Positions 32,367-64,000 of a stretch of 64,000 nt of DNA are shown here, in pieces. The notes beneath the pieces were generated by a model that was not told the origin of the DNA, did no database searches, and saw only the letters and a list, made by a program, of their open reading frames with translations. How positions within the stretch are numbered: position 1 is the first letter of the stretch; each line of letters opens with the position of its first letter. The position numbers and the translations under genes are program-made. This stretch comes from Cyanidioschyzon merolae. Taxonomy: Eukaryota. The DNA lies in assembly GCA_000091205.1 (NCBI GenBank), contig AP006501.2; one strand, given 5' to 3'.

Positions 32367-32829
32367 TTGCCAAGACTCTTCTAAGGAATAGGTGACTGCG
32401 ATCAGCAATAACGCTAACGAAAAGGCGTGTGGCTCGAGTTAACCAAGATCAGCAAGCGTCCTTTTCACGGAGTAGGTGCGTGCTATTACCAGCAACGTTA
32501 ACTAAAAGGCGTGTGCTCAGGTTTTGCAACGGGAAACGCGTTGCCTTTCCCGGGAACTTCGAGAACGCGCTCAATAACGTCTGAGGAAAGCACATTCGTT
32601 TCTGCGGGAGAAGCGTCACACTTACGTCGTTCTCGTTTCCGTCGGTGCCAGAACAGAGAGGAACCTCGTGAAACGAGATCGGCTTCCTATTCATACTCAA
32701 AAGCTCTGGTCCCGTGTACACATACGAGGGCTCAAGCAGCTCACCAAGGCGTCTCTCTGGACCGCTCAACGTGCGACGGCCTCCGCACTGCCTGCGTTGC
32801 CACCAGCACTCAACATCTGTAACGGTGCC

Positions 32830-35800: not shown

Positions 35801-38800
35801 TTGTTGTTGTTGATGATGTCGAGAGCAACATCGGCGCAACTGAGTATCAAGTTTGTGGCGAGCATCGCCAACATTATCTTACAGCACCCAAGCACGCTGC
35901 CCAGTGCCTTTTTGTGCCGCAATGGCTTGCCCAGTGGGCGCTCGCGCACGCCGAGGACACCATCGCCCTGGATGCCTTGTATCTTCTCACGCAACCGAAT
36001 GTTCTGACGACTGCACCTATTCCATTAGGGCATCTGCAGCTACTGCTGGAGGCATTGCCAGCCTTGACTGTAGGCACGCTTGCACCGAAATCGACGCAGA
36101 TGTTGCGTCAGTTCTTCATCAAATACATGGGTCCAGCTTGCCAGGCGCTGGTGCAGGGCTCTGGCTTCTGGGCGAGCGTCGGCTTCCTGCCAGGTACGGA
36201 CTCGGCTGCGCAGGTACCTGACGCCGAGAGCTGGTCTGCCAAGCGTTCCGGTACATTGTCGAGAACGCGACCGGAGGAAGCCTTAACGAAAGCGGATGCA
36301 GAAGCTGCAGCAGCAGAAGCAACATTCCTGTCCCAGACTCGAGATGTGAACGTATCAGCAAAAGCAACGGCAGCAGCGGGGCCAGGCACGGCACCGGGAA
36401 TGCAAAATGCCTCTGCTGTTGATATTGAAAGTAATGAAGTCATTTCCAGCAACCGCGATCTTTACGCTATACAGCTCGTGCGTTTTCTCAAGAGCTGGGT
36501 CCGTTTGCTGACGCTTCAGATCGGGCCTGGGGTGGGCCTGACCAGACGCCTCGCGGCAATATCTCTCTTGGAATCACTACCCGTGCAAGTCTGGCGATTC
36601 GTGGAGCACCAGTGTCCGCAACATATCCGTATCATGGAGGACTGCATCGCTGTCGCACTGGGGTGTCTTCTGGATCCCTATGACAGCATCCGGGTGCGGG
36701 CATGGGCGTTGCTTCGTAACCTTGCAGCCTACGCTGACCTGAACACGGTGATGAGGGTGCTCGTACCTACGGGGTCTGTTCTGGTACGTTCCTGGACGCG
36801 CAGGAAAGCGGACTCGGGAGCGCTTCTTCTGCGGACAGCTGTCATGTTCATGGACAAGGCTGCGAGCCCCAGGGCCTTGGGCAAGCTTGATGTTTCCCGC
36901 ATATCACTGTGCAACGGGGTCGGCACACCAGCACAGGAGGCTCCCTCGCGAGTTACGCTACTGGAGGCACTCGCTACGATCCTTGCAAACGTTGACATCA
37001 AAAGGCATGGGGTCGTCCTTACCCTGCGGTATTTGCTGGACGATTGTATGGATTCGGCAACGGGGCGATGGATCCAACCTCCCAAACCCAGTTTAGCCTC
37101 GTTGACGCGTCTGAGTCAGGCGTGCATTACCTTAGAGGAGCGCTGTTCCGCTCTATTCGCTACTCAGCACGATGGTTATGAGGCAGCTCTGCAGACGGAC
37201 CCGCTTTCTGAGGACGAAGCGTTTGCGTCTACGGCGTCAGCGGAAGACACCCAAGACAGAGCCCATTGGGAAAACCAAACGAGCAACACCTCTCTAGTTG
37301 CTTCTGCAGAATTGGCGTACGATGCCGACGCAGAGGAACGCGTAAGCGACGACTCTCAGGCAACCTGCGCAGAGTTTGCGCGACGCAGCACGCAGCACGG
37401 CGTCTTTCTCATCATCAGGGAGATTTGCTATATCACCAGCATTATCATCAGACTTCTGTTGGATGAATTTCATCCTGAGGAAAGCCTGGATGAGGCTTTC
37501 GTGGTTCCAAGTACCGCAGATTGGGTAGTAGGCGCTGCGGTATCGGTATCGCCGGCTACTGTTGCCGCTCTGGTCGAGTTTCTCACTGATTTTCTAGCGG
37601 GAATGCTGTTGCGCTATCGACATAGTGGTATTTGTGGCCACGCGTCGATCTGTTGGCGGTCTGTCTGCAAGCAGTTGGTGAAGCATACCGACCCAGCGCT
37701 GCGGGCGCTTCCCAACCGGTGTCTGGACCTCATTGTACAACGTCTGCACCACGGAGGTTTCGCTGTGCTGCGGCGCTCGGCAGGGCTTGCTTACCTTGTC
37801 CAGGGTGTCGTTGCGGCTTCCGCGAATTCTCCCTTGGATGCACTTGTCGATGTGCTCTTGCGGATGGCTCGCTCCTGGTGCGACGGGCAAGCGCTTGGCA
37901 GTGTGCATGCGATGCACATCCTTCGTGCGCTCCTGCAGGACGCATCCTTGACGCAGCGCACTGCACATCTCGTGCCGTTGGCGTTCCAGGTGGCTCTAGA
38001 CGGATTCCAGGGCACTGCTCCGTGGATGATTCGTAACGCTGCGCTGCTTCTGTTGGCTGCCTGCATCCAGCGTATCCTAGGTGGTCAAATCGTCCAGGGC
38101 GCCACGGCATTCCGCGTGACAAACAAGACGAACAGAAGTCATGAACAGGGAAGCTCGGAGCGCACACTGCACGACTTGCCTGGACTCCAGACTCGATCAG
38201 GAGCCCGAACGCGTATAACTGATACCAATACCCAGGCGTTTCGTCTCGAAGCGTACTGGGAAGAGCCCCTGGTGCTCGTCCAGTCTCGCGCACTCACCAT
38301 GGATGTTTTCCTTTCGCGCTACGCCGGAATCCTGGAGTCGTTGTGTCGTTTACTGCAGCAAGCGGCGGCGTCGACAACGTCAGCTTCTGTGCATCCTGGT
38401 GCTTTGACGGCTGTGTATCCAGTTCTTGTGCTGCTGTCGCGGTTAGCGCCCTTGTCGACGTCCACCGACGAGTTGGGCGATGGCGCTGCTTCATCCGCTG
38501 TCGCTTTTCCTGATCGACCAGAGGCGTTGTGCTTTAGCGGTCGCCGCTCTGTTCTTCGAATTCTGCTGGAGGCTGTAGAGCGTCTCACTGTCAGTGCTGA
38601 GGGTGCCGTTCGCAGGAAAGCCGCGCTCTGCTGGGCTAGGATCTGGCAAACCTGCTGCAGTGCGGATGCAGCTCCATGCCTGTGGCCGGACGATAGTACC
38701 GATGCTGCCGCTGTTCAGGGGATTATCTTGCGGCTTCGCTATTTGCAGGCCGTGGGCGCATGCCCATCCAGTGTTCGGGAGGCCTTTCAGAAACGTTTCA

Positions 38801-40839
38801 ACCCAGAGAGCTTCGCGAGACGTTTCGGATTAGATGCCACCATCGAGGCACTGCGTCTGTATGGAGAATTCGGGCTGCAGACAGAACCGTCCCAGTGGCT
38901 CTCCTTCTGCTCCTGGGCGGTGCGTCTGGCCTCCACGGACGCCAGTGTACCAGCCATGATCATGGCTGCTTTAGCGCTGCGGCGTTTCTGCGGAGCCTGT
39001 AGCGCCGCATGCGCTATCCTTGACGACAATGAGTACGCGGAGGAGGCTCTTCGCAGTGCCGGTCCGACGTTCGCAGCGCGGTTCGAAATGAACGCCGCGC
39101 ATGAGGAGCGGGTACCAGCGTCGTGTACAGACGCACTTGTGCTTTCGTATCTGTACTCTGTAGCGGCGACATGTCCTTTACCAGAGTTGGTCGCTACTGC
39201 ACTGCAGCTTGCTCAGGAGCGATCACTGGGCGGTATTCCGTCGGCCTGGATACCGCTTTTGCTGCGCCAGCTGCGCTACAGCTCGAACCTCTGTGTGTTG
39301 GCGGCAGCTTTGCGCTGGATAATCCAAACGTCACCAGATCATCCTGCATTTTTCCCCGCTGTTTGGCGGCACTACCTGGCAGCTGCACACACGAGTACCA
39401 CACTCGGCGACCTGGCCTTGGAAGCGCTTGGTAGTTTGGTCCACGATGCCCCCCGGGCACGCCAGTGGGTCCAAGCCCTCGAGGCGCTGAGGCACTCAGC
39501 GTACGCAGGAACCCCACAGGCACCCCGCGTTTCAGTTGAACGTCGCCTGGCAATGACTCGTTCGTTGCAAAGGGCGTTTTGCTGCAATTACTGGAGGATG
39601 CCGGAACGCACTCTCGCAGCATTTTTTTGGAGCGAGCGCCTACGCATCCACGGGGTCTGCTGGCGCCTTCTCGGTGACGACGAAGAGATCGTCCGGTGCG
39701 AGGCTCGCCGTGCTGTGGCTCTTTTCTGGGGACAGCCTCTGTATGCGACGCTTCGCCGGGGCTACCTCGAGCAGCAACTTGCGAGGGATCTCGTGTACGC
39801 AATCCTCCAAGAGCAAACCGAGATGATTCCTGCACCCTATAATACAGACGACGCAGCGCTATCCACGTACTTGATTGGTACGTGTATTGGGGCGGTGCAT
39901 CAGCACAACTCGTTTTCGAGCCAAGTATCGGTTCAGGCTGCGTTAGAAGGACAGAGTACCATGGAAAGACAACGTTGCCAGAGCAGATCTGGACCTGGGT
40001 ATTGGCATCTATTGTATAGTTCTGATGATCTGCATGTATCTGACGTTGAACCGCTTTCTGCTGAACAGCTAGCGCTCTACGTACAAGTGATGCTGAAGCA
40101 GGCGCGCAATGGACGTCTATGTGTTGGCGGCTCTGGAGAGGCGATGTCTATACAAGGTGCGTTCAGCGCGCATGCAAATCTCTTTCGGATACCGGATGCT
40201 GTGTCTGCCAGGTTCAGTGACAAACGTGCACTGCCACAAACGCCGTCATCGGTACCATGGGCTGCGTCCCAAGCGCCACTTCATGGACAGGGATTTGTCG
40301 ATTTCGGGCAGCACGTCCGAGGCTACGCTTTGGAGACTGTGCGTGCATCTTTTCGGGAACTTTTTGTGGAGACGCTGAAGGCGGCGGCCTCGGAGGCATC
40401 TGCGCCTCCAGCTGAGCTGCGGGAGTCAGTTCCTCGCTGTCCTACAGACGAACGTGCCTTTTCATATGCATCGCTCACCGGTGCAGATTCGCGTCTGGAA
40501 CAGCTTGTGAAAGGTCAGTTTCAGGCAATGCAGGTGCCTGACGTCTTTTCCAAGCGGTATCGTCTCTGGATGCAGCGAGTGATGGGTTTAGAGCATACAG
40601 AGAGCGCGTCGTTGGACGAGTTCTCTGAACTTGATCTGGCACCAGCGCTCTGGCGGTGGAGTCGGTGTACGACACAGCAAATGCTTTGTCCTCAACGTGC
40701 CAATGCTTTGCGTGACGTGGAGGAAGAAAGGCATTCCGCCGCTCGTGCTTCTTGTGAAACAGTGATATCGAACACAGACGATCAGCCTGTTTGGTATCTG
40801 CTTCCAGTGAGCAGAATTGGCGTCAAAGAGAATCTATAG
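32830..40839 (+). CDS. THADA: THADA / Trm732 homologue (large ARM/HEAT-like protein, DUF2428), predicted Trm7 partner for tRNA 2'-O-methylation at position 32
   Basis: A single 2,700-aa ORF contains 'GGFAVLRRSAGLAYLVQGV', the conserved RRSAGL(P) motif of THADA/Trm732. Much of the length is leucine-rich and helical. The track start is GTG at 32668; the first in-frame ATG is at 32830. A (GTC)7 run at 34057-34077 encodes poly-Ser. Confidence 0.65.
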   Translation: MCPETATPPQDATAAAASETSGPRTGCCSTSLQHMPPGQQHDTYLCRSQIIPLLEWIESVSDCMLGNASGNRVDGCCPKATDVNTSPAPRIPDAKGGYQRIKSNSLTSEALCTALHALTEARTPAAFHACTRQAFGKLIETTRAYVVSDTREAPANMLELLLDVLLLTEVVLFGSNLISSSLQCTWVTWLDRWLTVWLERWAAVPRNTDASAAVRQVYQQARLRDVLYACETVASGACQTGKNLAFAFERLSLHRAAGVTSHVSGTVHQAGLVTHALLHPDSKTSPSGTTLPGSAAMLGIESCRSLLTTQEPLTSSSSGVRHCSTGRASDSCSNAHEAPATRADAHMLLHDEFRQAEVDLVRESAGNHAVIPAPNALTSTLSTQQSTTDDARSGFVSTCAVGALPPSSPTSSSSSSTPTPQQEAISAACAAAPAESACALDHSTRASAWMWLLVVLGHLRGPQSTPFPIEDDRNEAGVLLWMACLEPVQLRGLYALSKSSIFRDALHQHKNWNEYVPLLVHASLREYEALLAARCRLEPFTVETAMAEASTQWRLPPELCDDVARCACRLASEVTGPSSVPVLMSLLCNETVPRSVSWNAAKSLALLDIRDGIAPWHRLECQRLTAFSQLAYLRSRLEHDTEATRELQTGTEEASAVSADSTEDPSVPGRALATVARAADPADAGASSEAFSRKEPQHSCSWLASAAQTLERLHHEHPTDRTLRTVAAETLALLVERIPGQRYAEALLLRLLMESTDLPDRFFQQSIQKMHRETLVSACTLPMLQQIWSKCCSLMPCHFRFLRIMVQENGVDAMHETADELLQRALLALNDHSMMLVKSALGFLEAWYLAEKRLRARGASIPTSRLLVRIGCFLQEFLARSPAERYVSASRLGVTLLPMLLRHGATVRELWECLCGARDPREGSLETTTGAPQVSGKHCDSSADRTHEHQHQHEQVRERFHRVLEGSTLPYLLLLVTVALVRARVVTRVELVVVDDVESNIGATEYQVCGEHRQHYLTAPKHAAQCLFVPQWLAQWALAHAEDTIALDALYLLTQPNVLTTAPIPLGHLQLLLEALPALTVGTLAPKSTQMLRQFFIKYMGPACQALVQGSGFWASVGFLPGTDSAAQVPDAESWSAKRSGTLSRTRPEEALTKADAEAAAAEATFLSQTRDVNVSAKATAAAGPGTAPGMQNASAVDIESNEVISSNRDLYAIQLVRFLKSWVRLLTLQIGPGVGLTRRLAAISLLESLPVQVWRFVEHQCPQHIRIMEDCIAVALGCLLDPYDSIRVRAWALLRNLAAYADLNTVMRVLVPTGSVLVRSWTRRKADSGALLLRTAVMFMDKAASPRALGKLDVSRISLCNGVGTPAQEAPSRVTLLEALATILANVDIKRHGVVLTLRYLLDDCMDSATGRWIQPPKPSLASLTRLSQACITLEERCSALFATQHDGYEAALQTDPLSEDEAFASTASAEDTQDRAHWENQTSNTSLVASAELAYDADAEERVSDDSQATCAEFARRSTQHGVFLIIREICYITSIIIRLLLDEFHPEESLDEAFVVPSTADWVVGAAVSVSPATVAALVEFLTDFLAGMLLRYRHSGICGHASICWRSVCKQLVKHTDPALRALPNRCLDLIVQRLHHGGFAVLRRSAGLAYLVQGVVAASANSPLDALVDVLLRMARSWCDGQALGSVHAMHILRALLQDASLTQRTAHLVPLAFQVALDGFQGTAPWMIRNAALLLLAACIQRILGGQIVQGATAFRVTNKTNRSHEQGSSERTLHDLPGLQTRSGARTRITDTNTQAFRLEAYWEEPLVLVQSRALTMDVFLSRYAGILESLCRLLQQAAASTTSASVHPGALTAVYPVLVLLSRLAPLSTSTDELGDGAASSAVAFPDRPEALCFSGRRSVLRILLEAVERLTVSAEGAVRRKAALCWARIWQTCCSADAAPCLWPDDSTDAAAVQGIILRLRYLQAVGACPSSVREAFQKRFNPESFARRFGLDATIEALRLYGEFGLQTEPSQWLSFCSWAVRLASTDASVPAMIMAALALRRFCGACSAACAILDDNEYAEEALRSAGPTFAARFEMNAAHEERVPASCTDALVLSYLYSVAATCPLPELVATALQLAQERSLGGIPSAWIPLLLRQLRYSSNLCVLAAALRWIIQTSPDHPAFFPAVWRHYLAAAHTSTTLGDLALEALGSLVHDAPRARQWVQALEALRHSAYAGTPQAPRVSVERRLAMTRSLQRAFCCNYWRMPERTLAAFFWSERLRIHGVCWRLLGDDEEIVRCEARRAVALFWGQPLYATLRRGYLEQQLARDLVYAILQEQTEMIPAPYNTDDAALSTYLIGTCIGAVHQHNSFSSQVSVQAALEGQSTMERQRCQSRSGPGYWHLLYSSDDLHVSDVEPLSAEQLALYVQVMLKQARNGRLCVGGSGEAMSIQGAFSAHANLFRIPDAVSARFSDKRALPQTPSSVPWAASQAPLHGQGFVDFGQHVRGYALETVRASFRELFVETLKAAASEASAPPAELRESVPRCPTDERAFSYASLTGADSRLEQLVKGQFQAMQVPDVFSKRYRLWMQRVMGLEHTESASLDEFSELDLAPALWRWSRCTTQQMLCPQRANALRDVEEERHSAARASCETVISNTDDQPVWYLLPVSRIGVKENL

Positions 40840-53206: not shown

Positions 53207-53719
53207 TCACGACTCTTCCAACGTCTGGCGAACAAGGCTTCGAACCCGCCGTCGGTACGCATCGGGTTGTTCGCGCCACTCCTTAGCAGCATCTATATTC
53301 GCGGGTGATTCGTCATTCGGGGACGCGAGCATGCTGATCACAGATAGTAGAATCGACTCAACAGTATGAACAGGTGACCAACGTTCGCCGGCCATTTCAT
53401 ACCCGTGTGGGTCGTCACCCGGAGGATGCAGAATGCTGATGCAAACTTCGCCGTTTCGGTAAACGTTCGGATGCCAGGGTATTGGCGGCAAAAACCTCAT
53501 TCTTGGCGGCAACATAGGGTACTCCGGTGGAAACGTAAGCTCCGCTCGAAACAGGCCCCCCTCGAAGGGCGTGTCTGGAGGGCCCAGCACCGTAACAGCC
53601 CAACGGAAGGGATCGTCCTCCGAAACGAGTCCCGCGCTGAAACCGTCCACGGAGCTCTTATTCAAGTCCCGAAGTTGACGGGTGAGAAGCAGCGCCGCAC
53701 GCGAAGAGTTCGCGCTCAT
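53207..53719 (-). CDS. UBC7: ubiquitin-conjugating enzyme E2, Ubc7/UBE2G-like (acidic-loop insertion)
   Basis: 'HPNVYRNGEVCISILHPPGDDPHGYEMAGERWSPVHTVESILLSVISMLASPNDESPAN' carries the HPN, the catalytic Cys and the UBE2G-type loop. The track ORF extends to 53854 through a dispersed repeat; the ATG 'MSANSS' is at 53717-53719. Confidence 0.85.
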   Translation of the reverse strand: MSANSSRAALLLTRQLRDLNKSSVDGFSAGLVSEDDPFRWAVTVLGPPDTPFEGGLFRAELTFPPEYPMLPPRMRFLPPIPWHPNVYRNGEVCISILHPPGDDPHGYEMAGERWSPVHTVESILLSVISMLASPNDESPANIDAAKEWREQPDAYRRRVRSLVRQTLEES

Positions 53720-53743
53720 TGTCTCCGCTGCTAGCGAACGCCT

Positions 53744-53832
53744 TTCAAAAAAAAGGTTGCTCCCGGCAGTGTACAGTAGCGGCGAGTGACCCGCCCTAGA
53801 CGAGACGTCTCCAACTGAGGTGCAGACGCCTG
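53744..53832. repeat. left copy of a ~90-bp direct repeat (partner at 57289-57381)
   Basis: The core 'gtRcaSgtagYggcgagtgacccgccctaRacRWgacgtctccaactgaSgtgcagacgcY' is shared with 57321-57381. Upstream there is additional similarity after an A-rich tract. Overall identity is about 85%. Confidence 0.7.
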
Positions 53833-53941
53833 TCGGGCTTTCTCGACCGGCCACTTACTACTCTTTTCCATTCTTGTCTCATATAATTCCACTTTGAGCG
53901 ATTGTCCAACGAAGTTCTCTCGTGTCTAAGCTGTAGGTCTA

Positions 53942-56290
53942 TTACCCGTCACCGCGCATTTTTCTCATATTGATTGCGGAGTTAAAGTCTCGGTTCACGA
54001 AATCCATTCGTTTCTTGCCATCACTGGATGTACTTACTACGGCAAGTTGTCCGAGAACTTTCGCCCTCCTTTCCATTTGCTCTTCTGTCAGCGCTCCGTA
54101 CTTTGCTATTTCCTCAGGGCTCCTCTGGCACTTTTCCATCTTCACTCTCTGAAGTGTACAACCCAGCTCATGGTGAGTATAGGACGTTCGAAACTCCTCT
54201 ACCCGTATCATAACGAAACGACGTGCGCACTCCTTGTACACCCTCGTCGTTGGAGCTAGCGTAGTTCCTTTTTGGGTCTTCCAGCGCCCTGCTCGATACG
54301 CTACTACGAGCCTCTGACTGTCATCCTCCATCAAGGCACTCAGCTGATTGAAAAAATTCGCGACCGCCCGCTGCTTCCCACAATACAAATTCATTCGCAA
54401 ACGAGCCCACCGGGGCTTGGTATACTCTTTCCACAGCGTATCCCAGTGCGCCATGCGAACTTCCATGACTTTCCGAAAAGCTTCAAAGTCCGCTCCTCGG
54501 CAAGTCACCTAGCTCCAAGCTTCCAGGTGATCTTTCATTCCTGAAATCCATGTCTCGATTTTCTTCCTCGCATTCATGATTCCCGAGTCTTGATAGTATC
54601 TCCCTCTCGAGAACCTCAAAAGACGCATGTCTTTCTGACGTAAGTTACCATCAGTACCATCTTCCGCACGCTTCAATGCTGCGATGGTAATGATATTCGT
54701 ATTCCCAGGGTCCGCGCCAACGACAAAGTCGTTATCTAGCACTCTCTGGGTCGCAGGGCCCACCTTCTTGTCTTCTTCATGCTTCACCGCGTCAACGACA
54801 AGGTCTTTATCCTGCATTTCCTGCGTCGTAGAATCCGCCTTCTTCGCATCTTCATCCTTCGCCGCGTCAACGATAAAGTCGTTATCCTCCACCGCCTGCG
54901 TCGCAGGACCCGCCTCTTGGTTTTCTTCATGCTCCTCTGCGTCAACGGCAAGCTCGTTATCCTCCACCTCCTGCGTCGCAGGACCAGCCTCCAGCTCATC
55001 TTCATCGTTCGTCACGCCAACGACAAGGTCGTTATAATGCACCTCATGCATCGCAGGATCCGCCTCCTACTTTTCTTCAGCCCTCGTTCCGGGCGCAGCC
55101 GATGGAGGGACTGGACGATCTTTCTTCAACCGTCGATAGTGTACGCACACGGTTACTCCATCGGTTTCGATCATCCCAGTGAGCTACTTTTGCTTGCTCG
55201 TTTTGAGACGTTTGAAACCGAAGATATTCTTCCAGTACGTCTCCCGGTTTTCGCCGGTGAAGTGCTCCCTACTAATATTGAACTCCGCACTGATCTCCTT
55301 TATGATGCCGTAAAGGACCGCGGAGTCGATCGTCATAAAATGAGCCTTGATGTTGCACAACGGAACGACATTGAAGCACTCACCCAATAGGAAAGCCTTC
55401 CGTCTCTCCCATTCTTCATTTTTCCTCACTCAGCTTCATCTCCGCTTTGCGTTCGAGCTCTCGGCCCAGAAACACAAAATACCGCCGGAAGATGCGATAG
55501 TATCTTTCCTTATCTTTTTTCAACTCTGATATCTTGTCTGTTGGATTCACCAGCCCCAAGACTGCACGATGCTCTTGTATAGCCGCACGGGTTACAGATA
55601 CTTCATTCGTGCTCCTTTTTTGACGTCTTCTTGTCGACGAATTCGACGTAATCTTCATGCTGGCGATCTTTCGTGATGCCACTGATGATCGACCATATCC
55701 CCTTGCGAGAGATGCCCGGGTTGAGTGCAAACGCGGTGCGTATCATGAAACATGCGAGGTTCTCTGTCAAATGGTTCTTCAGGTTCGTGATGTACTTCAT
55801 TGCCCCATATGTGTAAATATGCGAGTCACCCCTGCGCCGAGCACCCTCGAAGCGGAATACCGCGAAGTTTTCGTGGAGAGTATGCATTAGCACATTTTCC
55901 CTCCACGTTCCCGCTGTACCATGCATCAGGTATCGAAAAGACGTCTTGTCGAAGAACTCGCCCGGAATCTCGACCGTTTCCATCTGCGTCATTTGTTCGT
56001 ACATCTCCCTCGCCAAATGCATCAGTCCGGAAGACGCCTTGGCAATACTCTTGGAGTACGAGTCGACATGCTTTCTGATAGCGTCTCGCAACTTTTCCGT
56101 ATAGGGATGCTTGATATGTCCAAGAAGAGAGGTTTTCACCACTATCTCGTGGTACAGTTGTCGTTCTTGCAGCCTTCGACGTAGGGCCTCCCATTTTGCT
56201 TCTTTTTCTTTTGCTCTTCGTCGGGACTCGGCACTGTATTTGTTTTTCTGGCAGCCGGCGACAATGGCGCTTCAGGATCGTGGACTTGCT
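53942..56290 (-). pseudogene. decayed TnpB/Fanzor-like RuvC nuclease gene (transposon-associated), interrupted by frameshifts and in-frame stops
   Basis: The remnants lie in order on the minus strand. RuvC-I is 'VVGADPGNTNIITIAA' (54509..55051). RuvC-II is 'FVMIRVEEFRTSYT' and RuvC-III is 'DFVNRDFNSAINMRKM' (53942..54508), with a degenerate H/C cluster between them. An in-frame TAG at 54509-54511 separates the two ORFs. Further TAGs at 55067-55069 and 55184-55186 fall in the same frame. Upstream pieces sit in two other frames (55603..56142, and a short ATG ORF starting ~56290). Whether the N-terminal region is also TnpB-like is not established. Confidence 0.4.
54716..55090. repeat. 75-bp tandem repeat x5 encoding acidic 25-aa repeats inside the TnpB-like pseudogene
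   Basis: Units start at 54716, 54791, 54866, 54941 and 55016, an exact 75-bp period. They encode '...GPATQ.VEDN.F.VDA..DED.KK...' on the minus strand. Confidence 0.75.
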
Positions 56291-57288
56291 TTTTCATAGC
56301 TCTCCTTTTTTAGGTATTTTCGAAAAAGAACGCTCTTTGAACCCTTCTGTTATATACTGCGAAAAAGTACTTGACTAGACTTGTTTGAGGGCTGAAACAA
56401 AAATGAACTGAAAGACTTTACTTGGCTAAGAGCTCAACGGAAATCCAACTTTTTCTGGCAGAACAACACGCTCGTTACTAGGATCGCGTTTCCCTTCAAC
56501 GGCGGCATGCGCGTCGTGTCAGTTCACTGCCTGATCTCCGAGGCGTGCTCCCTGAGCGCGATGCGTGCACCGCGCGAGACGCTGCACCGATCCATGAAGG
56601 ACACGTGTCCGACACCGCCTTGGCATATGCGTATTCGCACCGCACTGCAGCTGGAATAAAGTATCGTAGATTGGAAACTCACGTAGAATGATCTCTTGCC
56701 ATAGGCTCTGGCGGCGGTGCCAACGCTACTGCCCATCGCAGTACCGACCTGACGTACAAGGGGATTTTGGGGCCTGGCGAGATACCCCTCGACGCTTCTA
56801 TAAAAAGCGTTGCGTTCTCTGCGGCTTACGCTTGTGTGGATAAGGAAAACATTATTCTACTCAATGGGATTTTCGTTAGTTTTATTGATCGTAAACAAAC
56901 AAGGCACGATAGGATTCCTGAACACGGATACACGTTTAATCCCGGTGCTTGTTATGCATGCGGCACGGACGCTGGAATAACGAACTGACCTGAGTTGTGC
57001 TTCTATCCTGCGTCACGTTCTGGAACTGATGGCAGATCAAGTCATTTCCATGCTATCGTCGTTGTCCAAGTTATGGCGCCCGCTACTCTCCCGGATCCTG
57101 TGATCTTGGGAGAGGCATAGCATACATAGAGCGTTCATACGTGGCACAGCACTTGACCAACGCATCTCACCTGGAACGATCGAGGAACCCGCCAAAAAAA
57201 GCATACTGAATTCTGATCTACTCTTTAAGATTAGTTTCAGGAGACTAACCCATACATCGAGCCCGGAAGAGACACAGCCGACAAAAAA

Positions 57289-57381
57289 TGCTTTTGAAAA
57301 GAAAAACGCTGCTGCCCGCGGTGCACGGTAGTGGCGAGTGACCCGCCCTAAACATGACGTCTCCAACTGACGTGCAGACGC
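57289..57381. repeat. right copy of the ~90-bp direct repeat (partner at 53744-53832)
   Basis: See the left copy. It has the same orientation, and the two copies are 3.55 kb apart. Confidence 0.7.
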
Positions 57382-57766
57382 TTCCAAAATAACATACCAC
57401 CGGAGGAAATTCCCTTATACCTCCTCTACGGTATTCGTCGGAGAGCCACGTCGACGTTCGTGAACGGTCGTTTAGATATCTGAGCGCAGCACTGCGGAAC
57501 CCTTGGCACTAACTGCTGATGAGGTTGTTGATGGGAAGCATAGGAGTTTTGCCTAGTTTCTCAGAAAGACATTGAGCACTTGTGCTAGATGTGCTCAACG
57601 CTATGCAGTGTACGGGAGATATAGGTCAGACTCTGGACAATTGACGGGCGATCACTCTTGCAGCTACGCAAAAGAGGTTTTTGACTGGATACGCATGGTT
57701 GAGCGAACGTCTCTAGTTGGTGGCGCGTTCAGCAGCTTTGCACCAGAGGAAATCTAATGCAAGAAA

Positions 57767-58842
57767 ATGCAAGCTCTTTTCGTTTTTGTCCCGTTGTACC
57801 AGGAAAGACACATTGTTCGCGCGCGCGCTGCAACTCGAGCACGGTTCCCGCTACGTACCGCACGTGACGGGTGCTTCGCAGACGGACAATGCCACCACTG
57901 TCAGCATCCGCTTCCCTTGTTAGTGCAGCCCTCGCCTGTAGCACGCCGGCACCACGCTCTGCATCTTCGTATGGGCCCGAAACAGTCGCAGGTCGCCGTG
58001 ATCACTGGCGCGTCCTCTAGAGTCGGTCTGTATTCCGCTCGCGCTCTGATCAGCAAGGGCAACTGGCACATCGTCATGGCATGTCGTGACGTCGACCGGG
58101 CGGAACGCGCAGCAAACAGCGTGAACCTTCCAAAGGACGCCTATACAGTGCTGCATTGTGATCTGGCTGATTTCGCCTCTGTGTTGAAGTTTGCGAGAGA
58201 GCTATCGAGTGTGGCGCGCGTGGATCACCTGGATGCCCTGATCTGCAATGCCGCACTCTGGCATCCGCGGGACAAGAAACCGCTTCTCACGGTGGACGGC
58301 ATCGAGAAGGCCATACAGGTTTGCTATCTGAGCCATTTGCTTATATGTCGGAGGCTATTGCCGAAGCTGAAAGTATCGCGCGGGCGCATTGTGTTTCTGA
58401 CGACTCAGACCCATTCGCCGAATTCGTTGCCGGGAAAGATTCCCCCGCAGGCTCGTCTCGGTGACTTGTCTAGTCTAGCCGCGGGGCTTGGTCCGCGGAC
58501 GACGGGCATGGTGGACAGTGGCCCGTTTGAGCCCACAAAAGCCTACAAAGACGCCAAAGCCGCGAACGTTTTATCAATGAAGGCGCTCAGTGATCGATAC
58601 GGCCGCGACGGGGTGACCTCTGTGGCGATTTTCCGGGATGTGTCGCCGACAGCAACCTCTTCCGCGAAAAGCGTGGCTGGTTCCGATACGTATTCTTCCC
58701 GATTCTTCAGAAGTATATCACTCCGCAATACGTTCCGAATGACGAGGCCGGCCGCCGTGTAGCCGAAGTGGCGACCCAGGGACAGTTCCCGGACTCGGGC
58801 TCGTATTATCAGTGGCGTGGCAAATATACGTATGGGGGATAG
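57767..58842 (+). CDS. POR: light-dependent NADPH:protochlorophyllide oxidoreductase (POR), plastid-targeted; the reading frame is interrupted by an apparent 1-nt deletion near 58631-58636
   Basis: After an ~80-aa presequence the protein aligns along its whole length to plant POR: 'VAVITGASSRVGLYSARALISKGNWHIVMACRDVDRAERAANSVNLPKDAYTVLHCDLA ... LICNAA ... GKIPPQARLGDLSSLAAG ... MVDSGPFEPTKAYKDAKAANVLSMKALSDRY'. After 'VTSVAIF' the similarity continues only in the -1 frame: 'PGCVADSNLFREKRGWFRYVFFPILQKYITPQYVPNDEAGRRVAEVATQ ... SGSYYQW', ending at TAG 58840-58842. The track ORF stops at 58762 in the wrong frame. Confidence 0.85.
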
Positions 58843-59121
58843 AAGACCGAACCGCAGGTTATTGAACCAACGTAAGAAATCGACAAGGCAGATCAGCTTT
58901 ACGAACTGAGTCTTGATCTGATCGACCAGGCGTTACGGAGGCGAGGCCTAAAGTCGAATTACTTGGCCCCTGTCTAAGGTTTGTTAGTGATGAAAATGAG
59001 ATGCGGGCTTCGGAGCGCAGACCGCTGCGTCAAGGACGGATGTGGGAGCAACAGCGTAACGATGAGACGACACCCCACTGTCACAATCGGATAGCGGACG
59101 GATGGGTGGGCACACCTCCTG

Positions 59122-60743
59122 ATGTGGAGAACCAAAATTGCTTCGCAAGTCAGAAAGCGTACTGCAGTAGTGATTAATATAGCTATAGCTATGACCTACT
59201 TCGCATCGAATGCGCCAGAGACTGCCAACTGTGGTCGTTCAAGAGGGCAGAGCGCGTTTATTTGGGTAATTTTGTGCGGTGAAGAATACGGCAATAGAAG
59301 CGCACTTGCAGACGTTTGAACGATCTGTGGGTATTCGATATCAAACTGGGTCAACGGGCGTGGATTAATGGAAGCTCGGTAGTGAATACTCTAGCAGTAT
59401 ATGGGGCATTGAGCGAGTCAGGCCCGAATAGTGTACCAAGTACTCGCTATGGATCAGCTTTCTGGGACACTAGTAGGACTGATCCGATCGTATTTGTTGG
59501 AAATGGATACATAAACACGAGCGGCAGTGACTTTCTCAATGATGTCTTTGCATTAAAGAAAACATTCCCTACTCCAACACCAAAAACTTCGCGGACACCT
59601 ACCCCCATCTGCTCCAATGAGCTCTGCGGATCTCCAGGACAGTGCATCAACCAGGACGCTTGCGAGCAAGTCGGGTGCTGCTTTAACTCCCAGACGAACG
59701 CTTGCACCCTGAAGAGCGTCTCAGCGGCGTGCAGCGCTGTTGAAGTGACGCAGCGCGTCACCTGCGGCTGGAGCTACATCTACCCCGACGAGTGCACTGC
59801 GATACCGGGATGCTGCTGGCAGCCCACAGCGAACGGCATCCTGGCACCCTGGTGCTACTACGACATCAACCATGCACCGCAGGCTTCCGTAGCGCTGCAG
59901 GAGATGCAGGCACCGGTTCCCGTCTGCGCATCACCGGGAGCGCAGCGCCAGCCATGCGGCGACGCGGGTATCAACCAGTTTACCTGCTATGCCCAGGGCT
60001 GCTGCTACGACTCGCAGGCGCAGAACCAGTGGGTGCAGAACGGCAAGCAGCAGAGCGACTTTGCGTCGAACCCGTACTGCTTCCAGCCTGAGAAGACGTG
60101 CGCGGTGGGCGAGTTTGAGCGCCAGCCGTGAAATAACGTGGTGAATCAGAACCAGCAGCGGAGCAACAATAACATCAACAGTAGCCAGTTTGTGCGTCTG
60201 CTGAACACGGTCCTTTACGGAGAGCAGCACGGGACGCCGCGCACGAGCTACGCGTCGCAGCAGTGTCTGGAGGCTGGTTGCTGCCTGGGGATCGGCAACG
60301 AGTGCTTCCAGCCGGTTACCGAGTATGTTTGCCAGACCTATGGGTATGCGTCGAACTCGCTGAGCGGCACGACCGGCAAAGTGTCGAACTCGACGTATAT
60401 TCCATGCGGCTCCGAGTGCTGCAACGCCGAGACGCAGAACTGCACGTAAAACCCGTTCAGTAACAACAATAACCAGCAACTGCAGCAACAGCAGGTGCTG
60501 TTGCCGTCATTCTGTGTGTGCAAGGACCCTACAGTTCAGTCCGGGACGTACCTGATCGCTTCGGATAACCTTGTGCACAAGGTGCGTTGCTGCCGCTCTG
60601 GCGAGGAGTGCATCAACAACAAGTGTATGATGATTAGTCCTACGCCGTCTCCGAGTGCCGTTATTGCGACTGCAACTGCGTCTGCAAGTGCGTTGGTATT
60701 GGTGTCGACCTCGACGCGTGCCTCAGCAAGTACTTCAGTATGA
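59122..60743 (+). pseudogene. disrupted secreted Kelch-fragment / TP-linker / triple P-type (trefoil-like) Cys-module gene; paralogue of the N-terminal part of 61427..63616
   Basis: Frame 1 (59122-59319) encodes a Kelch-like 'GQSAFIWVILCGEEYGN'. A frameshift follows. Frame 0 from 59316 gives 'NDLWVFDI ... YGSAFWDTSRTDPIVFVGNGY ... LNDVFAL' (Kelch-like), then 'TPTPKTSRTPTP', then three modules with CG ... GCC[FWY] ... (P)[WY]C[FY] spacing ('TCGWSYIYPDECTAIPGCCWQP ... APWCYY', 'PCGDAGINQFTCYAQGCCYDS ... NPYCFQP'). The same frame continues through an in-frame TGA (60129-60131) and TAA (60447-60449) into further Cys-rich and N/Q-rich segments and a hydrophobic tail. The downstream segments have no ATG. 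Confidence 0.45.
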
Positions 60744-61426
60744 ACCACTGCGTAGACGGCAGCTATCTGTACGGCCCCGCGCGCGCGAACACAGAACTAA
60801 AACATGTTTCAGTTATTGGTATATTGATTCCATGAGGAACGTGGTTGTACAATATAGTTCGCACGTGCATGCACGCAACCTTCCAGTCCGGGTTGGGGGC
60901 CCACAATCCAATGTTGAGGGTATCTGGACACCAAACTTAGCCCTAGACTGGACATCGACAAATATGCAGATGGCCTGCAGAAAGAGGGAGTTTTTCGTAC
61001 TGCGTCATAGCGGGCCGGGTCCGAATGTGCGACGGGCACGCCATTAGCCTTTTTCGATATTTGGACTCTGCAAGGGTATTTGAAACACGACTGCGGCGTA
61101 GACTGCTACTTTGTATTGCCATTACGAGAGCGCCTTCATGAAACTCGGTAGCAGACGCTGCAAAATATCTTTGTCCATTTATGATAGAAATGTCCTGTTG
61201 CGGGAGCGCCGTGCGCAGATCTGCGTCATTCAGACGGCGGTGCTTGACGCGCTCCCGTGCTGCTTACCTCAGAATACTTCGTGGAGGCTCGTAGTGGTAC
61301 GGACGGAGACAGCAGTGACAACAGTACCAGCAGCTGGAGGCTCTCCTATCCCTGTAGATAGTAAGCAACTCGTTTCTCTGGGAGGCGTTTACTTTTGACT
61401 GGTGCAGAACCCCTTTCGTATCCTAT

Positions 61427-63616
61427 ATGCGAAAAAGGTATTTTTCTATTGTGAGACTCCTGGTTATAGTATTGGTTGTGTCGGGAACACACACAGTTCG
61501 TGGAGTTTTGTCCGCAGAGAATACTGTATTATGGACCTGGATCGGTGGTAGTAGCTCTAACGGCAGTTCAGGTAGCTACGGTGTTCAGGGTGTGCCGAAC
61601 ACCAGCAACGTGCCTCCGGCGCGGTACGGTGCGGCCTTCTGGACCGGCGCTGACGGGGTGCTCTGGTTGTTTGGTGGTGGCAGCGACTTGAGAGACGTCT
61701 TCGGTGATCTCTGGAACTACAATCTAAGCACGTTCTCTTGGACCTGGGTTGGAGGCTCTGCATCCCTCAACTCTGGAGGGGTATACGGCTCCCTCGGAGT
61801 TCCCAACAAGAGCAACTATCCGCCTTCGAGGACGGAATCCGCTGCTTGGAGTGACAGCAACGGAAACCTTTGGTTATATGGAGGCTGGAATTTGAACTTG
61901 GGCTATAGTGATATGTGGATGTATAATGTATCGTCGGGCGAGTGGACATGGGAGCAGGGATCCAACAAGACCAATGTTTCCCCGACATATGGTCCTCTTG
62001 GGAACTCGTCTGCAAGCAACACGCCTGGCGCTCGTTTCCAACCCGCGACCTGGGTTGGCCTAGATGACCAGTTTTATCTCTTTGGTGGATTTAGTCCTAG
62101 TGGTACGTATTACGGTGACTTGTGGCAGTACAACACAGTGACCAACGAATGGAGCTGGATAGGTGGCACTCAACAGCTGTCTCCCTCTGGAAGCTATGGT
62201 GCGTTTCGCCAGGCATCGCCGAACAGTTATCCCGCTGGACGTTTCGGAGCCACCTCGTGGCGAGACCTTGATGGGAACTTTTGGCTATATGGCGGTTTGG
62301 GAGAGATTGACGCAGTTGGCAGCTTTCTCAATGATTTATGGCTGTACAATATCAGCTCCAAAGAATGGACTTGGATGTCTGGAGATGACAGTGTTGGCTC
62401 AAATGGGGCAGTATACGGCGAGAAAGGAGTGCCGTCATCGAGCAACACTCCGGGGTACAGATCCGGTTCCTCTGGATTTGTAGACTCGTCAAACACTCTG
62501 TATCTCTTCGGTGGTGTTTCACGCGGCGTCTGCAACGACCTGTGGACGTTCAATATAACGAGTCTTGAATGGACTTGGGTAGACGGTGACGATACAACGA
62601 ATGGAGCCTATAGCTACGGCGAGGTTAACAAGACAAGCAATACAACGCTTCCACCTCCGCGATACGATGCAGTTCTTTGGAATACCGATCAAAACGACCC
62701 GGTCCTATTCGGAGGCCTCGGTAGCTCAGGTAGCTATAACGACCTCTTCACATTATACATCGCAGCACCGACGCCTACACCGACCGCAACACCGACTCCG
62801 ACGGCCTCACCGACGCCCTCCGTTACTGCAGCACGGTCGGCAACGACAAATGTGACGCAGACCGCTGTAGGCGAAGGCTCTGCGGTCTGCTTCCCCGCGG
62901 ATGCCTCGGTGCTGATCGATGGTCTGGGCAACCATCTGCAGATAAGCGAGCTTCGATCAGGTATGGCCGTGATGGGCGTCAATGGGCGCGGGCAACTGGT
63001 CGAAGATAGTGTACTAGGATGGTTGCATAACGAGCCCGGCGCTACTGCAGAGATTCTGGCGATCAAGACGCTTTCCGGAAAGCAGCTGCGTCTGACGAGA
63101 CAGCATCTGGTATATCGAGTGATCGAACACTTTAGAGACTTTGATAGTATGATGACCACTTTCTCGTGTATTTCACAGAAGCAGCAGCAGCAGCATCAGA
63201 AGCACATACGTCGGAGCCTTGAGTTGGGTACCACCGCCGTTGAGGCAGTTTTCGCGGAAGATATCCGCGTTGGCGACGCTCTGCTGGACGTTGCTGCGCA
63301 CCTGCCGGACCCCGTGGTGGCAATCGAGACAGTAGTTACGCACAATGGTCTCTATGCGCCGTTGACTCGCTCAGGGCGCCTTGTGGTCGACGGCGTTCTC
63401 GTGAGCTGCTACGGGACGTACGCATCGCATGCCGTGGCCCATGCAGTGTTGTGGCCTGCGCGGGTCGATGCTCTGCGCAAGGTATGGACATCAGGGCTCG
63501 GCACAGAGGGTATTGTGGGTATCATGCCATACGCAGAAAGGCTCTATCACATTTGGACGAGTGCAGCACGTGTTTTAACGGAGGCTCGCGTAAGTGTTGT
63601 AGTTGCAGCCTGCTGA
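61427..63616 (+). CDS. secreted Kelch-repeat beta-propeller protein with C-terminal Hint (Hedgehog/intein-type autoprocessing) domain (Hog-type protein)
   Basis: The ATG is verified at 61427, followed by the signal peptide 'MRKRYFSIVRLLVIVLVVSGTHTVRG'. Six Kelch-like blades follow ('PPARYGAAFWTGADGVLWLFGG', 'DLWNYN ... WTW', and so on). A Thr/Pro linker 'APTPTPTATPTPTASPTPS' comes next. The Hint module begins at 'CFPADASVLIDGLGNHLQISELRSGMAVMGV' and runs through '...TRQHLVY ... HNGLYAPLTRSGRLVVDGVLVSCYGTYASHAVAH'. The conserved Cys-Phe-Pro start and TxxH are present. Confidence 0.8.
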   Translation: MRKRYFSIVRLLVIVLVVSGTHTVRGVLSAENTVLWTWIGGSSSNGSSGSYGVQGVPNTSNVPPARYGAAFWTGADGVLWLFGGGSDLRDVFGDLWNYNLSTFSWTWVGGSASLNSGGVYGSLGVPNKSNYPPSRTESAAWSDSNGNLWLYGGWNLNLGYSDMWMYNVSSGEWTWEQGSNKTNVSPTYGPLGNSSASNTPGARFQPATWVGLDDQFYLFGGFSPSGTYYGDLWQYNTVTNEWSWIGGTQQLSPSGSYGAFRQASPNSYPAGRFGATSWRDLDGNFWLYGGLGEIDAVGSFLNDLWLYNISSKEWTWMSGDDSVGSNGAVYGEKGVPSSSNTPGYRSGSSGFVDSSNTLYLFGGVSRGVCNDLWTFNITSLEWTWVDGDDTTNGAYSYGEVNKTSNTTLPPPRYDAVLWNTDQNDPVLFGGLGSSGSYNDLFTLYIAAPTPTPTATPTPTASPTPSVTAARSATTNVTQTAVGEGSAVCFPADASVLIDGLGNHLQISELRSGMAVMGVNGRGQLVEDSVLGWLHNEPGATAEILAIKTLSGKQLRLTRQHLVYRVIEHFRDFDSMMTTFSCISQKQQQQHQKHIRRSLELGTTAVEAVFAEDIRVGDALLDVAAHLPDPVVAIETVVTHNGLYAPLTRSGRLVVDGVLVSCYGTYASHAVAHAVLWPARVDALRKVWTSGLGTEGIVGIMPYAERLYHIWTSAARVLTEARVSVVVAAC

Positions 63617-64000
63617 GCTGGCAATCTGCCCTGCAGGACAGGGGCGAACAGTACCGATGGTACCACTCTAGGTGCTGCTTTTTCTGCCATAGGATAGTGT
63701 TTGAGCAATGATGGTAAAACGCGCTCTATCGCGAAAAAGCATCCCGCAGCATATTGCCAGGCATTTTTGATATGTGATGGTACCAGATCCACTTATATAA
63801 ACGAGCGGAGTTGCAAAGAAGTATTCGTGTGTGTGAAATCGAGGCACGCCGCGAAATACAGTTTTATGTACCAAGATGTACTGTAGCGCCAATACTTGCG
63901 GAGAGCAATAGCAGCAGCTGCCGGTTACATGAGACTGAGTGAGCAGAGGTTTGCATGCATCTATGCTTCGAAATAGTATTGTGGCTGGGGAGTTGTGGAG

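Follow-up and report, generated by a model that had tools for sequence, protein, structure and literature searches.

A complete Kelch–Hog gene from a probable subtelomeric element of Cyanidioschyzon merolae and its predicted self-cleaving product

What does a Hedgehog-type autoprocessing domain act on when its cargo is not the Hedgehog signal? This question is raised by an open reading frame near one end of a 64,000-nucleotide stretch of DNA from Cyanidioschyzon merolae (contig AP006501.2; hereafter the window). The frame (61427..63616, plus strand) runs from an ATG through 729 codons to a TGA, with no internal stop and no need for an intron. Judged from its sequence, the 729-aa product is a Kelch propeller cargo joined to a complete Hog domain, which comprises a Hint module and a sterol-recognition-like region. 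The original prediction for this frame was confirmed as real and correctly read. The best overall explanation, to which we assign a probability of roughly 0.7, is a subtelomeric copy of the Kelch–Hint (K+H) family in which the Hog domain would cleave the precursor and attach a sterol anchor to a propeller of the binding type.

Gene, family, architecture and subtelomeric setting are already known from the literature, a status that the original prediction had overlooked. K+H fusions with a Thr/Pro/Ala linker form a subtelomeric multigene family in Cyanidioschyzon and Cyanidiococcus (Cho 2023, PMC9812998; Nozaki 2007, PMC1955436), with 11 copies in Cyanidioschyzon (Cho 2023, PMC9812998). The family's defining combination of Kelch, Thr/Pro/Ala linker and Hint in a single ORF was found here. 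Five paralogues of C. merolae 10D annotated as 'similar to hedgehog protein' were retrieved (BAM79404, BAM79709, BAM80407, BAM81404 and BAM82656; chromosomes 6, 7, 11, 14 and 18). Full-length identity was 87–92% for these paralogues; K+H proteins of Cyanidiococcus were 43–45% identical. The full architecture (signal peptide, six blades, T/P/A linker, Hog and a terminal ...AAC) is shared by the proteins of 10D and Cyanidiococcus, and the paralogues have in common a subtelomeric setting beside POR and trefoil genes. The exact protein sequence was absent from the protein collection searched; compared with the chromosome-14 copy, it is near-identical up to about aa 176 and diverges afterwards.

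The position of the gene was assessed from its neighbours, with genomic context taken from metagenome contigs (L001–L006). The mitochondrial EF-Tu encoded in the window is identical to the 10D chromosome 19 protein, and the gene order E2, POR, trefoil, hedgehog corresponds to the gene set of the subtelomeric PH elements, which are located at 6L, 7R, 8L, 8R, 11L, 14R, 18R and 19R (Nozaki 2007, PMC1955436). Because of this gene order and the chromosome-19 neighbour, the K+H gene most likely belongs to the PH element at 19R, a placement made by neighbourhood only. Telomere repeats (AATGGGGGG, CCCCCCATT) were not found within the window, which stops 384 bp past the K+H stop codon. A TnpB/Fanzor-like reading of minus-strand ORFs at 53.9–56.1 kb was dropped, as it received no support in Pfam and PDB searches.

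Two genes next to the K+H gene are damaged. A subtelomeric POR-like short-chain dehydrogenase copy, the 'P' gene (57767..58974, plus strand; adh_short 5.5e-17), is frameshifted near 58630, where a tblastn alignment of the L001 homologue breaks into two frames. A degenerate Kelch–trefoil (K+T) copy (59316..60743, plus strand; Trefoil PF00088 1.3e-18, Kelch remnant by tblastn), 1.3 kb upstream of the K+H gene, retains only the last Kelch blade, the T/P linker and the trefoil domains. Its frame has no ATG at the start and is interrupted by in-frame stops at 60129 and 60447, both of which are sense codons in L001. The contrast between broken POR and trefoil copies and an intact K+H gene is an addition of the present work. 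These lesions would suit the view that the K+H copy is itself a silent or decaying subtelomeric duplicate without current function, as would the fairly high pairwise dN/dS (0.5–0.6 overall) and the H3K27me3 mark and moderate repression reported for the family; given this mark, the copy at 61427..63616 may be little expressed. We nevertheless consider such decay very improbable: the 729-codon frame is intact with every catalytic residue preserved, aa 496–540 show dN=0 against a dS of 0.06, and Hog genes of C. merolae are expressed, mostly in the wall-less haploid stage, with proteome support in Cyanidiococcus. Pairwise comparison of the copies shows the intact frame to be under mild purifying selection.

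The N-terminal part of the protein agreed well with the original prediction, which had proposed a signal peptide, six Kelch-type blades and a Thr/Pro-rich linker. The first 26 residues (61427..61504, plus strand) consist of MRKR, a hydrophobic core and a VRG|V site; no 11-mer elsewhere in the protein is more hydrophobic than aa 8–18 (mean Kyte-Doolittle 3.35). This N-terminus is kept in all K+H paralogues aligned and, by heuristic judgement only, is consistent with a putative signal peptide. It is followed by a six-bladed Kelch beta-propeller (aa 27–447; 61505..62767, plus strand), detected by Pfam as Kelch matches PF24681 (4e-36) and Kelch_4 (9e-33 over five stretches). In a full-length AF2 model built from a 12-sequence alignment, aa 33–447 reached a pLDDT of about 90, and the strand list resolved into six blades of four strands each, strand 34–40 at the N-terminus being assigned as the closing one. 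Foldseek matched six-bladed Kelch domains, including those of LZTR1, KLHDC2 and Keap1, at E of about 1e-16. The structural neighbours are Kelch domains of the binding type, at 13–19% identity. The propeller contains 12 N-x-S/T sequons.

An enzymatic role of the Kelch domain, either as a radical copper oxidase of the galactose-oxidase type or as a NanM-type sialic-acid mutarotase, is suggested by annotation: Kelch_3 and Kelch_4 bear the Pfam name 'Galactose oxidase, central domain', and homologues carry the JGI label 'N-acetylneuraminic acid mutarotase'. Oxidases of the galactose-oxidase type combine a seven-bladed propeller with a Tyr-Cys cofactor and Cu ligands. The present propeller has six blades and a single cysteine, C369, which lies in one of the variable B-C loops and is missing from three of the homologues (P0006, P0034 and P0041). 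PF24996 (NANM) gave no match at E<=1, and the structural neighbours point to binding rather than catalysis. The description 'galactose-oxidase-like' in the original prediction reflects only a Pfam label, and identity with galactose oxidase or NanM was rejected because of the number of blades, the absence of any conserved cysteine and the missing NANM match; we regard an enzyme here as extremely unlikely.

Variation among the paralogues is concentrated in the B-C loops of the propeller, where 53% of positions are variable; among strand positions the share is 12% (Fisher p=1e-6). The B-C and D-A loops form a face that differs from copy to copy and most likely serves as a binding surface. Mosaic breakpoints were seen between K+H copies, which, from their sequences, are recombination mosaics. 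The concentration in loops and the mosaicism are both additions of the present work. Relaxed constraint alone would also be expected to focus variation on loops. Positive selection is not claimed: sliding-window dN/dS exceeded 1 only across aa 181–315, with small counts and for four sequences that are themselves recombinant.

Between propeller and Hog domain lies a Thr/Pro/Ala-rich linker (aa 448–487; 62768..62887, plus strand; PTPTPTATPTPTASPTPSVT...), with a pLDDT below 30 in the full-length model and a composition that agrees with the linker of the published K+H fusions (Cho 2023, PMC9812998). Its end, ...GEGSAV, directly abuts V487|C488, the predicted scissile bond. The Hint module that follows (aa 488–665; 62888..63421, plus strand) was delimited by Pfam, alignment to Drosophila HhC, AF2 and Foldseek. 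PF01079 matched, like the Kelch profiles, at a level well outside chance, with E=5.1e-33 and 114.9 bits, against a gathering cut-off of 29.7, and covered aa 485–709, corresponding to profile positions 10–207 of 213; Hint_2 and Hom_end_hint gave nothing at E<=1. Since the full-length model left the Hog half unusable (pLDDT <50, 12-sequence alignment), the Hog domain was modelled alone with 80 diverse Hog sequences. In this model, with an overall pLDDT of 84.6, the Hint module exceeded 90. The top Foldseek matches were the Hint domain of Drosophila Hh (1AT0; E=1.5e-11, TM 0.88) and 6TYY (Hh D46H).

The original prediction had described a complete Hint module beginning with Cys-Phe-Pro, and this held in every part. 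Cys-Phe-Pro (C488-F489-P490) aligns with C1-F2 of Drosophila HhC and is invariant in 12 family members; the TxxH of motif B (T557-R-Q-H560) aligns with T69 and H72 of Hh and is invariant in the family alignment; and S660-C661-Y662 of motif J falls on S142-C143-Y144. With H534, these residues give a predicted catalytic set of the form C-H-T-H-C (C488, H534, T557, H560 and C661). Metazoan HhC (1AT0, 6TYY) has in common with the K+H protein the Hint fold, C1, TxxH and the SCY triplet with C143. The two differ at the position of the general base, where Asp46 of Hh corresponds to His534, a residue invariant within the family, and at the residue preceding the nucleophile, which is Val in place of the Gly of Hedgehog and may slow the acyl shift. 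The original prediction was silent on the His replacement. His534 is not a peculiarity of this protein: His occupied position 46 in 94 of 163 aligned Hog sequences and Asp in 63, so that His is the commoner residue among the most similar Hog domains. The D46H mutant of Hh nonetheless autoprocesses in cells (PMC12054796). Self-cleavage of the K+H precursor is predicted as highly probable.

A further difference from HhC is a 28-column insertion relative to the Drosophila protein, located after motif B and ahead of the fold's C-terminal half, in which the predicted Q-rich stretch QKQQQQHQKH was present. The corresponding region (aa 568–602; 63128..63232, plus strand) is predicted to be disordered, with a pLDDT of 50–58 and no secondary structure in the AF2 domain model. 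The insertion is Q-rich in the Cyanidiococcus homologues too.

The C-terminal tail (aa 666–729; 63422..63613, plus strand) resembles the sterol-recognition region (SRR) of Hedgehog, or the 'ARR' of other Hog proteins, in alignment, in AF2 helices and in the Hh SRR motifs of PMC7906309. It is modelled as a helix (667–687), a loop and a second helix (700–727), the helix-loop-helix arrangement of HhC. The first helix contains the 'HPR' motif (H672/P677/R679). The second opens with M-P-Y at the position of 'HWY' in Hh, and G698-I-M-P-Y-A-E-R-L-Y707 aligns with the G-I-x-x-Y-A-x-x-L-Y motif common to both proteins. Against Drosophila HhC, SRR motifs K (AH..L.P.R) and L (GI..YA..LY) are invariant; H672, P677, R679, Y702 and L706-Y707 are unchanged across Cyanidioschyzon and Cyanidiococcus. 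The protein ends with an extra cysteine compared with HhC. This Cys729 is invariant in the clade, whereas a terminal Cys was seen in only 3 of the 146 other Hog representatives; a clade-specific, invariant C-terminal cysteine, recognised from the alignments, is an addition of the present work.

The fate of the predicted thioester can be weighed from these features. If the Hog domain were a mere release module, water would hydrolyse the thioester and the lipid-free, glycosylated Kelch–linker fragment would pass to the medium or the glycocalyx. M-P-Y in place of the 'HWY' hinge leaves room for altered or missing sterol recognition, and this, together with the Val before the nucleophile, would favour hydrolysis. 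It is also in line with hydrolysis that Burglin named the tail of non-Hedgehog Hog proteins 'ARR' because their adduct is not known, and that sterol data for C. merolae were not found in PMC2817430, which predicts a sterol pathway for this species. The strong conservation of the SRR-like tail, its Hh-like predicted fold and the invariance of H534, the putative general base, argue against hydrolysis, since hydrolysis alone requires neither the tail nor this residue. As an account of the whole locus, plain release by hydrolysis therefore appears unlikely, and a sterol adduct rather than hydrolysis is predicted at about even odds.

Alternatively, the thioester might be transferred to a non-sterol nucleophile (another lipid, a glycan hydroxyl or a protein amine), fixing the propeller to a surface component in the manner of BIL/Hint domains. 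The terminal cysteine and the Q-rich insertion, which set the clade apart from other Hog domains, could be taken in this sense, and BIL domains do occur among the structural neighbours; yet by both structure and sequence HhC of Hedgehog is nearer than BIL domains or inteins, and SRR motifs K and L of Hh are kept. Transfer of this kind is accordingly judged very unlikely. An intein, whose splicing needs a C-extein with a +1 nucleophile after a C-terminal Asn, was rejected as well, as there is no C-extein (C729 is followed by the stop codon) and Hh is the closer structural match.

In classification, the term 'Hog protein' used in the original prediction is that of the current literature (Plant Cell 2026, PMC13353863, citing Burglin 2008). 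The cargo sets the protein apart from HhC proteins: HH_signal (PF01085), the HhN 'Hedge' signalling domain, had no match at E<=1 and the N-terminal 450 aa are Kelch repeats, so that by domain content the protein would not qualify as a bona fide Hedgehog. Other non-Hedgehog Hog proteins (warthog, groundhog, quahog, Hoglet and those of red algae and moss) are likewise secreted and combine a lineage-specific N-terminal cargo with a C-terminal Hog domain. In the red-algal and moss Hog proteins of Burglin 2008 the cysteine of motif J is replaced by Ser, Thr or Asp, whereas the K+H clade retains it as Cys661; neither Kelch nor Cyanidioschyzon occurs in that paper.

Two further groups resemble the N-terminal part. 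K+T proteins of Cyanidiales have the same Kelch type, T/P linker and subtelomeric duplication orthogroup as K+H, and differ in carrying a trefoil set where K+H has a Hog domain of apparently self-cleaving type; their expression is mostly diploid, that of Hog genes mostly haploid. Secreted Kelch-repeat proteins of bacteria, for example that of Dinghuibacter (P0014), show 36–39% identity over all six blades and share with the algal proteins a repeat of about 70 aa (WTW...G.YG...N.P..R...W.D..G.LWLFGG...LNDLW.YN). The bacterial proteins lack Hog, usually exceed six blades and bear other C-terminal modules, in many cases T9SS sorting domains.

For the favoured reading, that of a self-cleaving, sterol-anchored K+H protein, the following sequence of events is proposed. 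The precursor would enter the ER via its signal peptide and the propeller would be N-glycosylated. Cys488, assisted by T557 and H560, would attack the carbonyl of Val487 in an N-to-S acyl shift, and the thioester might be relayed to Cys661. A membrane sterol, brought in by the SRR-like helices, would then most likely resolve the thioester through its 3-OH, with His534 as the activating residue. This would leave a Kelch propeller, heavily glycosylated and carried on a mucin-like T/P stalk, which a sterol anchor would hold in the outer membrane leaflet of wall-less haploids; the Hog fragment would be discarded after cleavage. Recombination among chromosome ends would diversify the B-C/D-A loop face. 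A surface role would accord with the signal-peptide-like N-terminus, the 12 sequons, the haploid-biased expression of Hog genes, the loop-focused variation, the mosaic breakpoints and the predicted sterol pathway. For these Hog genes, published speculation likewise favours a surface protein that undergoes self-cleavage, lipid modification or both.

Taken further, the subtelomeric K+H genes might constitute a contingency or variant-surface system in which sterol-anchored, glycan-shielded propellers coat wall-less haploids, gene conversion at chromosome ends diversifies the loops and H3K27me3 gates expression. This is quite unlikely at present. If true, such a system would have counterparts in the adhesin and antigen families found in the subtelomeres of yeasts and parasites, and the variation could serve gamete or self recognition or the evasion of biotic enemies. 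Sterol ligation, if true, would make K+H the first case of Hedgehog-type sterol ligation outside animals that anchors a non-signalling cargo. C. merolae is now genetically tractable and its haploid/diploid cycle is known; the K+H proteins therefore lend themselves well to identifying the adduct that a Hog domain outside the Hedgehog proteins joins to its cargo. To the non-animal Hog proteins, which inform the origin of the cholesterol-ligating domain of Hedgehog, the present window contributes only a well-preserved example and descriptive detail: His534 as putative general base, variation focused on loops, mosaic copies and a terminal cysteine that does not vary.

The gene encoding the Kelch–Hint/Hog fusion (K+H) occupies 61427..63616 (+), exactly as in the original prediction, with an ATG start, 729 codons and a TGA stop. 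The Pfam searches matched both predicted parts of the protein. A Kelch propeller was found at about aa 30-450 (PF24681, 4e-36; Kelch_4, 9e-33, in five stretches), and the Hint profile PF01079 matched aa 485-709 (E=5.1e-33; 114.9 bits, curated cut-off 29.7 bits). The latter match covered profile positions 10-207 of 213, in line with the complete Hint module originally proposed. Hedge/HH_signal, Hint_2 and homing-endonuclease Hint profiles gave no Pfam match at E<=1 in the K+H protein. Searching PDB sequences retrieved human Sonic hedgehog (7e2i, 2e-9) and Drosophila Hedgehog (Hh; 6td6, 6tyy, 1at0).

Residues 1-26 look like the predicted signal peptide, as judged heuristically from the sequence: MRKR is followed by the hydrophobicity peak of the protein (aa 8-18, mean Kyte-Doolittle 3.35) and by VRG|V. 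The AF2 model (pLDDT ~90) shows aa 27-447 as a Kelch propeller of six four-strand blades, the number initially suggested, with A strands at 70, 139, 207, 276, 349 and 416; the N-terminal strand 34-40 was assigned in this model as the outer strand closing blade 6. In PDB, Foldseek retrieved six-bladed Kelch domains, those of LZTR1, KLHDC2/3, plant specifier proteins and Keap1, with E ~1e-16 and just 13-19% identity. The modelled fold is a generic one and suggests no enzymatic function. The Kelch repeat unit (window 61505-62767, +) is ~70 aa long, and in the list of propeller homologues secreted bacterial Kelch proteins (Bacteroidota, others) outranked all non-cyanidialean eukaryotes. The propeller contains 12 N-x-S/T sequons and one Cys. 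Bacterial secreted Kelch proteins share the repeat type at 36-39% identity across six blades; a horizontal origin of this type is possible. Between propeller and Hog domain lies the expected Thr/Pro-rich linker (aa 448-487, PTPTPTATPTPTASPTPSVTAARSATTNVTQTAVGEGSAV), predicted by AF2 to be disordered.

The Hog domain (aa 488-729), consisting of Hint and a tail resembling the sterol/adduct recognition region (SRR/ARR), was aligned to the Drosophila Hh autoprocessing domain (HhC) as printed in PMC12054796. C488, T557, H560 and C661 correspond to Hh C1, T69, H72 and C143, and both TxxH and the C-terminal Hint motif align. Conservation extends to the SRR motifs, AH..L.P.R and G-I-x-x-Y-A-x-x-L-Y. 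Neither these catalytic residues nor the SRR motifs varied in 12 Cyanidioschyzon and Cyanidiococcus proteins. His534 occupies the position of the Hh general base D46. This is not unusual, because 94/163 aligned Hog sequences carry His and 63/163 Asp at this position; the commonest catalytic pentad in this set (the best 150 matches from a scan of 1.8 billion proteins, the cyanidialean proteins and two references) is C-H-T-H-C. Autoprocessing in cells persists in D46H Hedgehog (PMC12054796). A domain-only AF2 model, computed with 80 diverse Hog sequences, reached pLDDT 84.6 overall and >90 in the Hint beta-fold. Its top Foldseek match was 1AT0 (E=1.5e-11, TM 0.88, rmsd 2.6 Å), followed by 6TYY, the crystal structure of D46H Hh; inteins and BIL domains ranked far below 1AT0. 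In the model, residues 667-687 and 700-727 form two C-terminal helices that match the helix-loop-helix of the Hh SRR as described in PMC7906309. After motif B and before the C-terminal half of the Hint fold lies the Q-rich insertion predicted within this domain (segment aa 568-602); it contains 28 alignment columns that fly HhC lacks and is disordered in the model. Every full-length Hog tail of Cyanidioschyzon and Cyanidiococcus ends in ...AAC, with a final Cys seen in just 3/146 other Hog representatives; one guess is that Cys729 (codon at window 63611-63613) is acylated or disulfide-bonded.

The complete catalytic set together with the SRR-like tail argues for Hedgehog-type autoprocessing. 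With T557 and H560 assisting, the V487|C488 bond would undergo an N-to-S acyl shift, and the thioester may be relayed via C661. A sterol, its hydroxyl activated by H534, would then resolve the thioester. The product would be a glycosylated propeller that sits on a mucin-like stalk and is anchored in the outer leaflet of the membrane. Self-cleavage of the K+H protein is considered very likely (probability about 0.85), while the chances that it yields a sterol adduct are about even. Counted as doubts on the mechanism are Val487, where Hh has Gly before the nucleophile, M-P-Y at the HWY hinge of the Hh SRR, and the sterols of C. merolae, uncharacterised in PMC2817430. The main rival to sterol transfer is release of the N-terminal fragment by hydrolysis only.

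In nine close copies, 53% of B-C loop positions were variable vs 12% of strand positions (Fisher p=1e-6), and variable columns were likewise unevenly distributed between B-C plus D-A loops and the remainder (p=5e-5). In Kelch propellers such as those of Keap1 and KLHDC2, ligands usually bind to the face that these loops make up. Paralogues P0126 (chromosome 7) and P0130 (chromosome 14) differ at 31/56 polymorphic sites (55%) before aa 236 and at 0/96 after it; the window copy and P0130 show 3/33 differences up to ~aa 176, then 51/119 (p=0.006). Mosaicism was supported at p<0.01 in 5/36 copy pairs. P0126, P0130, P0003, P0132 and the window copy are recombination mosaics, whose sharp breakpoints indicate gene conversion between chromosome ends. 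Pairwise dN/dS of the window gene vs three metagenomic copies was 0.5-0.6, and dN was 0 across aa 496-540; the Hint core shows constraint. Values >1 were confined to aa 181-315 and rest on small counts; positive selection on K+H is not proven.

Window 54285-64000 has a colinear counterpart in metagenome contig L001 (87.6% nucleotide identity), and K+H is the sole intact gene of this stretch. The POR-like short-chain dehydrogenase gene (57767-58974, +), frameshifted near 58630 vs its 368-aa L001 homologue, is probably a pseudogene of the 'P' gene of subtelomeric 'PH' elements. The degenerate Kelch–trefoil gene (59316-60743, +; PF00088, 1.3e-18) retains only a vestigial last Kelch blade, the T/P linker and trefoil domains. 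Its frame begins without ATG and contains stops at 60129-60131 and 60447-60449, both sense codons in L001, whose trefoil gene is itself frameshifted. Three ORFs at 53942-56142 (-), two sharing one frame broken by a stop at 54509-54511 and one with acidic repeats, had no match in Pfam or PDB; 221 homologous protein clusters were found, nearly all unnamed JGI/ENA metagenome proteins. Both GC and AT are strongly skewed in this region, which resembles an unannotated mobile element of the multicopy kind; an impression of TnpB/Fanzor-like motifs was backed by none of the tools used. A very long ORF (2723 aa) lies at 32668-40839 (+).

The closest proteins to K+H are annotated 'similar to hedgehog protein' in C. 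merolae 10D (87-92% identity, full length), and 10D BAM83042, encoded on chromosome 19 (1,282,939 bp), has exactly the sequence of the mitochondrial EF-Tu in the window. The window gene order, ubiquitin E2 (53207-53854, minus strand), POR-like dehydrogenase, trefoil gene and 'hedgehog' gene, comprises the set drawn for 10D subtelomeric elements, with 'PH' elements at 6L, 7R, 8L, 8R, 11L, 14R, 18R and 19R (Nozaki et al. 2007, PMC1955436). K+H paralogues were retrieved from chromosomes 6, 7, 11, 14 and 18. [quoted passage not shown] 2023, PMC9812998), among H3K27me3 targets (Mikulski et al. 2017), and as mostly haploid-expressed genes refiled as non-Hh Hog proteins (2026 Plant Cell paper, PMC13353863), a classification that agrees with the original one. 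The observation is confirmed and its interpretation supported; its remaining value is as a non-animal Hog domain open to biochemical study in a tractable alga.
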